Below are positions 1 to 3,104 of a stretch of 64,000 bases of DNA, piece by piece. The notes under the pieces were generated by a model. That model was not told the DNA's origin. It saw only the letters and a list, made by a program, of their open reading frames with translations, and did not search any database. Each line of letters begins with the position of its first letter. Position 1 is the first letter of the stretch. Source of the stretch: Scyliorhinus canicula (lineage: Eukaryota); the NCBI RefSeq assembly GCF_902713615.1, contig NC_052162.1, positions 86,095,240 to 86,159,239 on the forward strand. The letters are read 5' to 3'. The position numbers were made by a program, and so were the translations under genes.

Positions 1-173
1 GTGGTGGGCCACGTGTTTGCCTGTGGTGTAGTGGAGGAATTAATGGTCGTGCGGGACCCTCCTGTGTCCCAGAATAATTCTATGGGCTTTCCCCGAATTT
101 TCGCCGTGACTACTGGTTGTCCGGATCGGTCCCAGAGGGTGTCACAGACCCAAGTGGGGGAGCCCAAACACCA
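1..173 (-). CDS. Aspartic protease (start of pol) of retrovirus-like LTR element, partial, runs off the window
   Basis: Manual translation past the TGA at 174-176, in the Gag frame, gives WCLGSPTWVCDTLWDRSGQPVVTAKIRGKPIELFWDTGGSRT. The D-T-G catalytic motif is at about 60-68. Confidence 0.85.
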
Positions 174-1139
174 TCAGTCCGTTCCGTCCACATTGGTCTG
201 TCCTGACTGCGTCCCTATACTGTGGATAGGCTTTGCTTTGTTCCTGTTCAGAGTGCCTGTCTGCTGGCCTCTCTGAAATTTCTGCGGGGCGTTGCATTCC
301 CTAGCAAAATGCCCTAACTGTCCGCAGTTAAAACATTCCTGTGACTTCTGTGGGGGGCTGGTCTTTCCCTCATTTACAAATGCGGGGTTTTGGTGCGTTC
401 TCACTGCCTGAATATCTGCTGCAGCCTGCGCTTCTTCAGGGTCCTTAAATGTTACCTTGCCATGGACAGATTGCTCCCAAGCGTGGGACAATTTTTTCAA
501 TACCCATTTTTCATTATGGGCCTCTTCTGAGGGGTCGTAATTGGAGCAGACATTCTGTCCTGCATCTGTGGTGTGGGAGATGATGGTGCGGGTCCATTTA
601 ACCATGTTATCCTGGGTCAAATGTGAGCGGTCTAATTCACCGAAAACTGCAGTGAAGTGAATCCACAGCCTTCCTGCGAATGCTGTGGGGTGCTCGGTCC
701 TTTTCTGCCTACACTTATTTAGGCCTTCGACGGGGTCTCCTCTGTTGTACCCTATCGCGTCTAAAATAGCTGTATGCATCTCTTCGAGGGTGCCTCCTCC
801 AATGTTCTGTGGGTCGGGGAGGGCTGCTACAACTGATGAGTCTAAACTCAAAACTGTGAGCTTAACCTGCTCTCGCTCATCCAGGCCGTACATGGTCGCC
901 TGCTGCTTCACTCTTGCGAAGAATTGGTGGGGGTCTGAAGTGGGGAGGAATGGGGTGATTTTCTCACATGCGTCCCTTAGTTGAGTCACGGTTAAGGGGG
1001 TGGTGTAAGTGATCTCGGGTGCGCCGTCTGCGGTTGCTTTTCGTTGGCTGGTGACTGGGTTCATTGGTACGGCTGCTATCTGATCTGTGGGGGGTTGGGG
1101 CACTTTCCTTTTCTGCTGCGCTGCTAGCGCACATTTCCC
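174..1139 (-). CDS. Gag C-terminal part (capsid-like region plus CCHC nucleocapsid knuckle)
   Basis: ORF 174..1103 contains CFNCGQLGHFAREC (CX2CX4HX4C) and a capsid-like CRQKRTEHPTAFAGRLW segment. The frame stays open upstream to at least 1139. Confidence 0.9.
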   Translation of the reverse strand, partial: GKCALAAQQKRKVPQPPTDQIAAVPMNPVTSQRKATADGAPEITYTTPLTVTQLRDACEKITPFLPTSDPHQFFARVKQQATMYGLDEREQVKLTVLSLDSSVVAALPDPQNIGGGTLEEMHTAILDAIGYNRGDPVEGLNKCRQKRTEHPTAFAGRLWIHFTAVFGELDRSHLTQDNMVKWTRTIISHTTDAGQNVCSNYDPSEEAHNEKWVLKKLSHAWEQSVHGKVTFKDPEEAQAAADIQAVRTHQNPAFVNEGKTSPPQKSQECFNCGQLGHFARECNAPQKFQRGQQTGTLNRNKAKPIHSIGTQSGQTNVDGTD

Positions 1140-1918
1140 TGAACATATCGCTGCACTGTCTCACTTAACTCCTGCCAATCTGGGGCATTCTCTTCTTCTA
1201 ATTGTGTTCCAAACGTTTCTTGGAAGCCATTCTGCACAGAAAGCAGAGATTGCAACTCCGCAATCTGCTTCCTACATTTTGCATGGTCCACTGTGCTTTG
1301 CCTTTGCTCAGTGGTGGCAGCATGGAGTGCCCTTAAAGCTGCCTTTAGGTCGCTACACTGCTTTTTCAGTGTCTCTACCTGTTTTTCTGATTCTTCTCTT
1401 ATCAAGACTGCATGCTGCTCATCTTGATAGGCTTTTTCGTACTGAACTTGAGAGCAGCTCAGATGGGCTAGACAAGACTGATGTGCCCTCTTGGCATCAT
1501 CCACCTCTCTATCCTTATCTGCCAACCTTTCCCTTAATTCTGAATTATCTGTCTCAATGTCCCTGACATCCACTTTGCTCATTCTATTTTTCTCCTCTAA
1601 ATCTGCGCGGAGCGTCCTGACGACCTCCTCTGTGCCTCGTAATTGTGCCAAGCAGGACACAATTGCCATCGGCTTACGTGCTTTACTCAAACCTTTCTTA
1701 TGAATTTCAGACAGGTTCTCCCACCAAGTATGCCCTATACTCCCGGGACCTGTCTCCTCATTCAAACAAAACTCACTCCAAAGGGGCCATCCTTTCCCTT
1801 TGAGGTACTTCATGAGTTCCAGCTCCCAAACGGGACACTGACCTACTCTGCTGCTGTTGGTCGCTGCGACCACGAACTGCTCTGGGTTCATGAGGCGTTC
1901 CATTGCCTGCATGGCCAT
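1124..1918 (-). CDS. Gag N-terminal part with long coiled coil; one frame out of register with the downstream Gag part
   Basis: 264-aa ATG-initiated ORF about 290 nt downstream of the PBS, with an E/K/Q/L-rich heptad-like C-terminal half. It overlaps the downstream Gag frame. Confidence 0.8.
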   Translation of the reverse strand: MAMQAMERLMNPEQFVVAATNSSRVGQCPVWELELMKYLKGKGWPLWSEFCLNEETGPGSIGHTWWENLSEIHKKGLSKARKPMAIVSCLAQLRGTEEVVRTLRADLEEKNRMSKVDVRDIETDNSELRERLADKDREVDDAKRAHQSCLAHLSCSQVQYEKAYQDEQHAVLIREESEKQVETLKKQCSDLKAALRALHAATTEQRQSTVDHAKCRKQIAELQSLLSVQNGFQETFGTQLEEENAPDWQELSETVQRYVQGNVR

Positions 1919-2204
1919 TTCTTTTTCTCTTATGCTCTCTTAAATTTGGAACGAGGGATAATAAGGCAGTTATAAAAAATGGGTGCGGCTTTCGCTATTT
2001 TCCGAATGATAAACTCCCGACAGTTTGTCGCAACAAAAATCTCTCGGTTTTACCTTACAACCCTGTTAGTTACGCATGCAAAAGCACATTTCCGAATTAT
2101 GAGGATTGATTTGAACTACTTGAACACTTGTGGTTTTTCCTTTTCCCACTTGGATTTCAGATTCAAATTTCTGGGTTCTCTCGGAGTGGGGGGGCCACTT
2201 CTAG

Positions 2205-2227
2205 TCGAGTCCCATCAGAGTCTGCCA
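2205..2227 (-). promoter_or_regulatory. Primer binding site, tRNA-Arg(TCT)-like
   Basis: + strand TCGAGTCCCATCAGAGTCTGCCA vs vertebrate tRNA-Arg(TCT) 3' end TCGAGTCCCACCAGAGTCGCCA (recalled): one substitution, one inserted base. It lies 5 nt from the LTR terminus. Confidence 0.75.
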
Positions 2228-2232
2228 CTAAA

Positions 2233-3075
2233 TGTGGCTCGTTCTGGGTGAGTGTGCTTTACACTCAAATTGACTCTGTTTCGTTCCTTAGCTCTAGAGT
2301 CGCCAGGTATCGTTAAAATACCGCCACAAGTTTCAAGTTCAAATTCAGACCAATAACTCCATACACCAGTTAGTAAGTTCAAACAAGACATGTTTATTAT
2401 AATAGTTATCTACTAATTATGCATATAAAACTACAAGACTAGGCTAATCCTACCACTAACAGGCCAATACTTATCTGGATAAGGGAACTGCCGGATCAGG
2501 GAACAACGGCCTCTTGCTTTGTCCTGGATCCGCAGGCTTCCAGTCGGTGTGGACTAAAGGGGTCAGGAGTGTCTACTCTCGTAGCGTGCGTTGTGTGACA
2601 CTTACTTGGTGGCAGCTGCTGACCTCTCCTCTCCGTGGTCAAGTTCGAGAGCTACTACAAAGGTGTTCTTGTTGGGAGGGCCGGCTGAGAGAGCTGGTCA
2701 AGGAGAGGCTGGCAGAGAGAGAGAGCTGGGTTCTGGGTCTCTGTCTTATACCTCTCCCAGGGTCTCGCACCCACCAGAGCGGACCCTCTATACACTCGCA
2801 ATCGATTGGGTCTCTTCCCAATTGATTGATTTGAATTTCCCCAATAACGGTGCAGTCCCTCGATCACTGGGCGGTTCTTGGGGCTTATTGTTTTGGACTT
2901 CTCTTGGCGCCGAGAAGTCTGGCCTTCTATTCACTGTAGCGATTTGAGTTAACTTGTTTCTATTGTACCTAGGAATCACCCGGTATCGCCTCATTAGTAT
3001 GCTAACTTGTTTTCTTTCACAGTGCTGTCTGGTTTCTGCAGCAGTCAGAATACACAAGTGCTTTTGCAGGCTGCT
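2233..3075 (-). mobile_element. 5' LTR of the retrovirus-like element (outer edge uncertain, about 3056-3075)
   Basis: Ends in ...CCACA next to the PBS on the - strand. AATAAA(-) at about 2393-2398 and TATAAG(-) at about 2745-2750. Abuts a SINE head fragment at 3076. Confidence 0.7.
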
Positions 3076-3104
3076 TGCTAACCCACTGCTCCACCGTGCT
3101 GCCC
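3076..3104 (-). mobile_element. 5' fragment of tRNA-derived V-SINE
   Basis: Reverse complement GGGCAGCACGGTGGAGCAGTGGGTTAGCA matches the head of other SINE copies in the window. Confidence 0.7.

Follow-up and report, generated by a model that had tools for sequence, protein, structure and literature searches.

The subject of this report is an endogenous retrovirus (ERV) of the catshark Scyliorhinus canicula, met at the start of a 64,000-nucleotide stretch (NC_052162.1, positions 86,095,240 to 86,159,239, forward strand) that is referred to here as the window. The window holds the 5' end of a 9.9-kb defective provirus, minus-strand throughout, at positions 3079-1; the remaining ~6.9 kb lie to the left in locus L011 (minus strand; window position equals L011 position minus 6940). 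An earlier note, made from the letters of the window alone, had drawn attention to the Gag and protease of this element. Beyond that view lies a further oddity: the element has no env and carries instead, in the env slot, a small membrane open reading frame (ORF) under selection. Its order is long terminal repeat (LTR), primer-binding site (PBS), gag, stop, pol (protease (PR), reverse transcriptase (RT), tether, RNase H and integrase (IN)), small ORF, polypurine tract (PPT) and LTR. The boldest reading, given a rough probability of 0.27, is of a vertebrate retrovirus that swapped env for an independently evolved miniprotein resembling sORF2 and the FAST (fusion-associated small transmembrane) proteins, and that may still be spreading from cell to cell into the shark germline. 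That the small ORF is a functional gene is, on the selection evidence below, almost certain. The features around it are as follows.

L011 1749-1722, minus strand: acceptor block, recognized as a sequence motif
L011 1653-1306, minus strand: small membrane ORF, from the reading frame
L011 ~970-961, minus strand: PPT, from the sequence
L011 960-29, minus strand: 3' LTR, from comparison of the LTR pair

The earlier note had advised looking for env, and none was found in any of the 43 copy loci fetched. The gap from the end of pol to the PPT, measurable in the 21 of 43 loci in which these two marks could be recognized, spans 1,481-1,704 nt, with a longest frame of 117-233 codons; the other 22 are truncated, rearranged or missed by the pol-end and PPT motifs. 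A tblastn search with the snakehead retrovirus Env had no match in 43 of 43 loci, and its transmembrane (TM) subunit, used as a query, was not found in this genome. A single locus holds a frame of 617 codons, ending in a motif that we take to be that of a long interspersed nuclear element (LINE).

The env slot holds an ORF of 112-116 codons, typically 115, which is open in 16 of 30 older loci and in 13 of 20 loci picked by their RT. Its structural model shows a helix at residues 2-18, disorder at about 19-48 and a second helix at 49-98, and the protein is predicted to consist of a signal-peptide-like helix, an ectodomain of ~35 residues, a TM helix and a polybasic tail. Among the 29 open copies, a glycosylation sequon and a polybasic patch after the TM helix each occur in 28, a single cysteine in the inner half of the TM helix in 21 and a tail cysteine in 22, with no dicysteine motif in the alignment. 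Cysteines so close to the membrane were considered as candidate palmitoylation sites, which might supply a lipid anchor other than a myristoyl group. If signal cleavage is assumed, the ectodomain measures 35-36 amino acids in the five copies examined. Residues of the TM helix, including a Glu, are invariant in 29/29, although the same motif served as the filter for finding the ORF; they are also kept in a second species. Four unrelated-looking N-termini occur, all of them hydrophobic. A branch-point and acceptor block lies 68-87 nt upstream of the ATG and is kept in 26 of the 29. In most young copies a second cysteine precedes the conserved Cys of WC by 11 residues and could form a short disulfide loop with it.

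Comparisons outside the family returned little. The small ORF matched nothing in Pfam under E=0.06 and no fold at E<=0.001, and its language-model neighbors all scored under 0.9. A search of 1.84 billion representatives gave five matches, one of which was of low complexity and was discounted; the other four are catshark models at 47-89% identity. The best homolog, at 89%, is labelled Scyliorhinus canicula, while the version in a second catshark species is 47% identical. In the catshark gene models, host exons are joined on close to the acceptor point, with junctions read from the protein sequence, and host gene models in two catshark species appear to use the splice acceptor of the small ORF. 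In the second species, isoforms of three host genes end in the viral ORF as modelled (P0152, P0168-P0170). These genes, HEPACAM2-like, succinate-HMG CoA-transferase and PTGER3, are mutually unrelated, and two of the isoforms share an identical junction peptide with P0151. Judging from the gene models, such isoforms are possible cases of exonization.

Selection was scanned among the 30 older loci over 15 combinations of region and frame. In the small ORF, variants present in at least three copies gave a ratio of non-synonymous to synonymous rates (dN/dS) of ~0.28 (17 synonymous, 15 non-synonymous and no stops), whereas singletons gave 0.71 (33 synonymous, 74 non-synonymous and nine stops; Fisher p=0.012 for shared versus singleton). 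Shared variants in its other two frames gave 0.93 and 1.19, and shared frameshifts number zero in the small ORF against eight in the spacer. The PR-RT control behaved likewise, with 0.13 for shared and 0.64 for singleton variants, and no selection signal was seen in the upstream frame, the spacer or the 3' untranslated region. Between subfamilies (16 older versus 13 younger copies) dN was 0.19 and dS 1.30, a value near saturation, for a dN/dS of ~0.15. Uncorrected, the window element differs from the 13 young copies by a pN of 0.14-0.19 and a pS of 0.40-0.64, in pairs that are not independent. Selection of this kind, acting among copies, implies that the protein benefits the very copy carrying its gene.

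An upstream frame of ~100 codons, ORF-X, was considered as a gene and rejected: it is open in many copies, yet its shared dN/dS is 1.24. One other frame of that region gave 0.31 on 10 changes (p=0.26), and the region is read as one of splice signals. Since ORF-X stays open without selection, an open frame by itself is a misleading guide here. When old and young copies are compared, synonymous divergence for the most part exceeds in the small ORF (pS 0.40-0.64) that in PR-RT (0.37-0.45), and old and young LTRs align only in parts, at 68-78%. To judge from the alignments, this unevenness suggests recombination between the subfamilies.

The family likely comprises thousands of copies. In this genome of 4.2 Gb, a first look gave 5,227 LTR candidates, 4,086 candidate 3' regions and 5,380 candidate small ORFs, of which the best 40, 40 and 150, respectively, were scored and all matched. 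Among the best 150 scored RT matches, 35 have a pol frame of at least 1,400 codons, as counted by eye, and 20 of these 150 were fetched with long frames favored. Most of the 20 belong to a young subfamily whose RT is ~85% identical in DNA and 93% in protein; nine have an open gag, 15 an open pol and 13 an open small ORF, and in seven all three are open. Where LTR pairs were measurable, they are 98.5-100% identical in 13 of these 20 loci (at least 99% in 11 of the 13) and 92.7-98.5% identical in 12 of 23 older loci. The young subfamily has amplified recently, with the small ORF persisting. Locus L008 holds two LTRs about 1.3 kb apart without a full internal region. Expression was examined in four RNA runs from two studies with tissues not stated, mapped to an older copy only. 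Reads cover 30 of 30 bins of that copy, and in the three oligo-dT runs most internal reads have the orientation that sense RNA would show in the usual types of stranded library. The reads come from other copies, since most are 90-95% alike to the older copy and about half or more run on into unlike sequence.

In the mechanism proposed, the small ORF would be translated from an RNA spliced from a donor in the LTR to the acceptor just upstream. The N-terminal helix would be cleaved as a signal peptide, leaving a type I protein with a glycosylated stalk of ~35 residues outside and a polybasic tail inside. In what is the most speculative step, the tail may recruit particles to the plasma membrane, which is proposed because Gag lacks a myristoylation signal and there is no Env. 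Particles bound in this way could then pass directly from soma to germline or between germline cells, as proposed for insect sORF2. By analogy, the small protein may anchor capsids at membranes and aid their transfer between touching cells, a role that we hold tentatively and with the odds somewhat against it. This transfer role is favored because the env slot is filled, Gag has no myristoyl anchor, and the size, ectodomain and basic patch match those of sORF2 and FAST proteins. These have an ectodomain of ~30 residues and a polybasic patch, and sORF2 is sometimes found downstream of pol, according to the available portion of PMC11952523.

Several points weigh against an env replaced by a FAST-like or sORF2-like miniprotein. 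Glycine at position 2 occurs in 0/29 open copies, and a cleaved signal peptide would set the protein apart from FAST proteins. The ectodomain is predicted to be disordered, is rich in S, T and P, and has no obvious fusion peptide. Pfam, language-model neighbors, and sequence and fold searches gave no link to any fusogen. In the four RNA runs mapped to the older copy, neither a donor-acceptor joint nor added depth over the small ORF was seen, and no stable RNA structure was found 3' of the gag stop in the window copy (z=-0.82). In the accessible parts of PMC11952523, the sORF2 screen required a myristoylation motif, and the authors' own cell-culture work did not reproduce sORF2 fusion. According to sources available in part, ERVs that lack env amplify more readily in any case, and a high copy number therefore needs no transfer protein. 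A predicted complex of Gag residues 1-130 with the small protein, made with alignments not used, scored 0.00 and is no evidence either way. Because it has no Gly2, a signal-peptide-like start, a disordered stalk and no homology, the small ORF is not filed as a FAST protein.

Selection shows a benefit and not its kind, and the protein could be an accessory factor, Vpu-like or glyco-Gag-like in role, that blunts host restriction or an immune signal while the element copies itself within one cell. Complex retroviruses commonly have small single-pass accessory proteins, the invariant TM residues with their Glu suit an intramembrane partner, and the nearest feature neighbors, all under 0.9, are host single-pass proteins of a generic kind, glycophorin among them. 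However, the ORF occupies precisely the position of env, its acceptor is of the env type, and a surface protein would be less obviously needed in an intracellular cycle; on balance an accessory role seems rather unlikely. The position, acceptor and type I layout, all env-like, would also fit an env that has shrunk, having lost its ectodomain but kept signal peptide, membrane anchor and tail, and that either serves only as an assembly anchor for a Gag without myristoylation or depends on a helper Env acting in trans. In foamy viruses, Gag needs Env for membrane targeting. The snakehead retrovirus and the snakehead-like ERVs of sharks do carry env (for sharks, in the available portion of PMC4422223), but no Env appears among the longer homologs of the small ORF, the four matches being catshark host isoforms spliced onto it, nor is there any likeness to the snakehead Env, whose TM subunit found no match in the genome with that query. 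We consider a shrunken env improbable. A frame kept open by an RNA or DNA signal and not by a protein is largely refuted. It would agree with the want of any peptide or spliced read and with ORF-X being open in many copies without selection, yet the constraint is frame-specific with synonymous sites near saturation, hydrophobicity is kept across unrelated N-termini, and a second species has a version that is 47% identical.

If an env-less family keeps a different membrane gene under selection, this suggests a fourth route of ERV spread, next to reinfection with env, retrotransposition without env and help in trans (PMC10435555, in part). Such a route has been proposed, as far as the accessible text of PMC11952523 goes, only for insect Metaviridae and non-enveloped viruses. 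Screens requiring env, such as those described in the available portions of Han 2015 (PMC4422223) and PMC10435555, would miss such elements. In the literature covered, which excludes subscription journals, Repbase and bioRxiv supplements, no description was found of this family or of any vertebrate retrovirus in which a small membrane gene takes the place of env. Were it only an accessory factor, it would still be a membrane protein of viral origin that has gone uncharacterised, in a family of probably thousands of copies that includes a young subfamily.

The element is very probably an endogenous retrovirus of the kind described here, and it is filed as a derived env-less ERV and not as an infectious member of Retroviridae. 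Canonical retroviral traits are present: a tether and second RNase H, LTRs, PBS, PPT and a target duplication, the last being lost in the window copy. In an RT tree of 44 rows (28 of 45 retrovirus-like, 6 of 28 Gypsy and 7 of 17 foamy rows, plus 3 from the element), the element lies inside canonical Retroviridae on a 99/99 branch that leaves out the Loki-motif and Gypsy rows, contrary to the position at the boundary of retroviruses and Metaviridae that had been suggested for it. The Loki (100/98), Gypsy (100/99), foamy (100/100) and gamma/epsilon-like clades all stand apart from it. The bootstrap of this tree is not fully settled, and an earlier RT tree of the full set was a quick one. Loki rows were labelled by the motifs of published Loki rows and foamy rows by motif, neither by name; the trees are without named ERV-L, ERV4, class II or elephant-shark CmiERV rows, and their basal forks are unsettled. 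A second tree used 29 rows and 606 columns of RT, tether and RNase H, and topologies were compared by approximately unbiased (AU) tests under LG+G4. On the longer alignment the nearest relative is the Pol protein P0006, a sister at 99/97; the closest Pols, from frog, coelacanth and others, have 52-58% RT identity and both RNase H domains.

These tests bear directly on the families named in the earlier note. A foamy grouping is rejected on RT (p=0.016) and on RT, tether and RNase H (p=0.019). A sister placement with the snakehead retrovirus, implied by the label SnRV-like, is not rejected on RT (p=0.064) but is on RT, tether and RNase H (p=4.5e-4); what stands of that label is the set of Gag traits held in common. 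The element being a lokiretrovirus or an atypical Gypsy, the other options raised, has next to no probability left. Dual RNase H and a coiled-coil Gag do occur in lokiretroviruses too (available text of PMC7947760) and the capsid feature neighbors are Ty3/Gypsy-like, but grouping with the Loki-motif rows is rejected on RT (AU p=3.9e-5), the RT motif PQGFHNSP differs from the published Loki rows as given in the accessible part of PMC9040795, and Loki occurs in 0 of 3 chondrichthyan genomes in that of PMC7947760. Membership of Ty3/Gypsy (Metaviridae) is ruled out by the dual RNase H and the separate 100/99 Gypsy clade. ERV3/ERV-L and ERV4 were also rejected, as the element has 4-bp duplications and one CCHC knuckle, while in those groups the target duplication is 5 bp long and a zinc finger is absent (PMC4299795 Table 1, seen in part). 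A motif scan of viral contigs for ERV-L gave 0 matches, and a metagenome scan gave 76 loci with a best-segment identity of at most 44%. Snakehead- and Ovex1-related ERVs, with lineage I of the elephant-shark CmiERVs, belong to the clade Huo of Xu et al. 2018 (available portion of PMC6001957). In its broad sense, which unites the snakehead virus with class III ERVs, that clade could also take in the element. The view of a poorly described elasmobranch lineage with snakehead-like traits has held.

The window and the DNA to its left, where RT, tether with second RNase H, integrase and 3' LTR were found, divide as follows.

174..1918, minus strand: gag, ~581 codons, no Gly2, ending in TGA; from reading frames and unbroken relatives
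1304..1567, minus strand: Gag coiled-coil region (approximate; residues ~118-205), predicted helix
411..1028, minus strand: capsid-like helical region (approximate), from language-model feature neighbors
294..335, minus strand: single CCHC zinc knuckle, Pfam zf-CCHC PF00098, E=1.8e-7
1..173, minus strand: start of pol with protease, in frame past the gag stop, from the reading frame
71-60, minus strand: protease W-D-T-G, within FWDTGGS at 74-54, Pfam aspartyl protease E=2.8e-9
L011 6782-5817, minus strand: RT, Pfam
L011 5674-5252, minus strand: tether, a Ty3-type RNase H-like domain, PF17917, Pfam E=8.7e-18
L011 5237-4476, minus strand: second RNase H, PF00075, Pfam E=5.5e-15
L011 4369-2509, minus strand: integrase and C-terminus of pol, Pfam integrase and a weak SH3

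Most of what had been noticed in Gag is borne out. The gene runs from an ATG at 1918 to a TGA at 176-174 in two frames (271 and 328 codons) with a single break near 1160-1124; the break agrees with the earlier reading, whose length of about 590 codons is slightly high against the 578-582 amino acids of unbroken relatives. The N-terminus is M-A-M-Q and has no Gly2, as noted, and the long coiled coil is upheld as a continuous predicted helix over residues 118-205, without proline and with a 3.5-residue periodicity, at a predicted local distance difference test (pLDDT) score of about 70 in a model that is poor overall (mean pLDDT 43). A Gypsy-like capsid signature fared less well: the region has no Pfam capsid match and no fold match in PDB, and its language-model neighbors in the Retrotrans_gag and Ty3_capsid clusters (0.90-0.94) are a lead only. 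The single knuckle is real, and matches in a PDB sequence search with Gag were confined to knuckles. The protease with Trp before the catalytic Asp likewise stands, W-D-T-G being present in 13 of the 14 loci, out of 23, in which a protease motif was found.

In the window copy, pol continues in frame past the gag TGA and is split into seven or more pieces; a ~370-nt insert at L011 ~2705-3070, which presumably derives from the 3' end of a CR1-type LINE, breaks its C-terminus. The gag stop in the 20 loci picked by RT reads TGA-CGG in 16, TGA-TGG in two and TGA-CAG in one, with one out of register. UGA-CGG is a documented read-through context (PMC13517186, in part), and Gag-Pol may be made by read-through of it.

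The remaining window features concern the LTR, the PBS and the insertion site.

2233..3079, minus strand: 5' LTR without its first ~79 nt, ending in CA, 95.0% to the 3' LTR
2600..2605, minus strand: predicted splice-donor-like GTAAGT in the LTR, upstream of the PBS, read from the sequence
2205..2227, minus strand: PBS complementary to tRNA-Arg(TCT) with one extra base, 5 nt past the LTR, from the genomic tRNA gene
3076..3104, minus strand: head of a repeat like a short interspersed nuclear element (SINE), the insertion target of the provirus, from comparison of the left flank, right flank and second repeat copy in the window

The ~0.8-kb LTR of the earlier note is the 5' LTR lacking its first ~79 nt, because 3079-2233 aligns with positions 80-932 of the provirus's own 932-bp 3' LTR (TG...CA, 9.1 kb leftward) at 95.0% identity; those first ~79 nt match nothing anywhere in the window. 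They are missing because the provirus lies inside the SINE-like repeat and its 5' junction has been deleted: the repeat head is joined to the LTR through a common AGCA, and a short deletion at this microhomology removed the junction together with the target duplication. Elsewhere in the family the duplication, which the earlier note had sought, is 4 bp, exact in four of the six older loci that show both ends (the remaining two having one mismatch) and in 4/4 younger loci. The two LTRs of the window copy differ by a Kimura two-parameter (K2P) distance of 0.041 over 839 sites, equivalent to ~9 million years at a mammalian rate or 93 million years at the shark rate assumed in Han 2015 (available portion of PMC4422223). 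The right flank of copy L067 shares its first 10 nt with that of the window provirus (L012). GTAAGT recurs at a comparable LTR position in five of seven other copies scanned.

The Arg(TCT)-like PBS proved correct, as 2227-2205, apart from one extra base, complements the 3' end plus CCA of a tRNA-Arg(TCT) gene that lies in the genome and contains an intron. ARAGORN called one tRNA gene Arg-TCT, and the closest one, called Thr, was read as Arg-TCT from its sequence. The PBS has drifted within the family, with extra bases in several variants, and in the young subfamily it matches tRNA-Arg(TCT) only at the first 7 nt and a later block; a search for a better tRNA for the drifted variants gave 0 matches and two non-tRNA matches. 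An Rfam search of the whole element gave 0 matches.

Set beside named systems, the features of the element are real and less unusual than had been thought, because the Gag traits are already described for the snakehead virus and partly for Ovex1: a non-myristoylated coiled-coil Gag, one CCHC and an in-frame gag stop (available portion of PMC2717909). The natural snakehead genome (L052, reached through P0009, which matches the published snakehead RT row) has the same Gag traits and dual RNase H, and its RT is 49% identical to that of the element. The snakehead retrovirus, which we take to prime with tRNA-Arg as the element does, has a different PBS sequence, is not its sister in Pol and resembles its Gag only at the knuckle. 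It also has a UAG gag stop where the element has UGA, VDTG in place of WDTG and an env of 1,134 codons where the element has none, and the predicted donor inside the LTR is a further difference. Pol proteins of frog, coelacanth and others, annotated 'NYNRIN-like' and compared by Pol alone, carry the same Pfam set, although the nearest of them have an L/V/I-DTG protease.

Foamy viruses resemble the element in a W-D-(S/T)-G protease (five of seven foamy-motif loci read) and, in sources available in part, in having a non-myristoylated Gag with a coiled coil and a donor placed upstream of the PBS; according to the same kind of source, foamy Gag has no zinc knuckle, whereas the element has a CCHC, gag and pol in frame, and no env. 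Odin retrotransposons share dual RNase H and the lack of env (accessible part of PMC9040795), and lokiretroviruses share dual RNase H; both differ in RT clade, and no frame or Pfam match for their paramyxovirus-F-like env was found in the element. The available parts of the Odin and lokiretrovirus descriptions do not mention a small membrane ORF. The small ORF itself differs from sORF2 and FAST proteins in having no Gly2, a signal-peptide-like helix, a glycosylation sequon and no homology to them, and sORF2-bearing elements are Metaviridae whereas this one belongs to Retroviridae. The likeness is one of layout: in the accessible text of PMC11952523, Drosophila MDG1-group elements with sORF2 are also env-less and encode a small single-pass protein with a short ectodomain and a polybasic juxtamembrane patch, and in that of PMC12945298 the FAST proteins of reoviruses are likewise small and single-pass, and, like the catshark ORF, have a short ectodomain and a polybasic patch.

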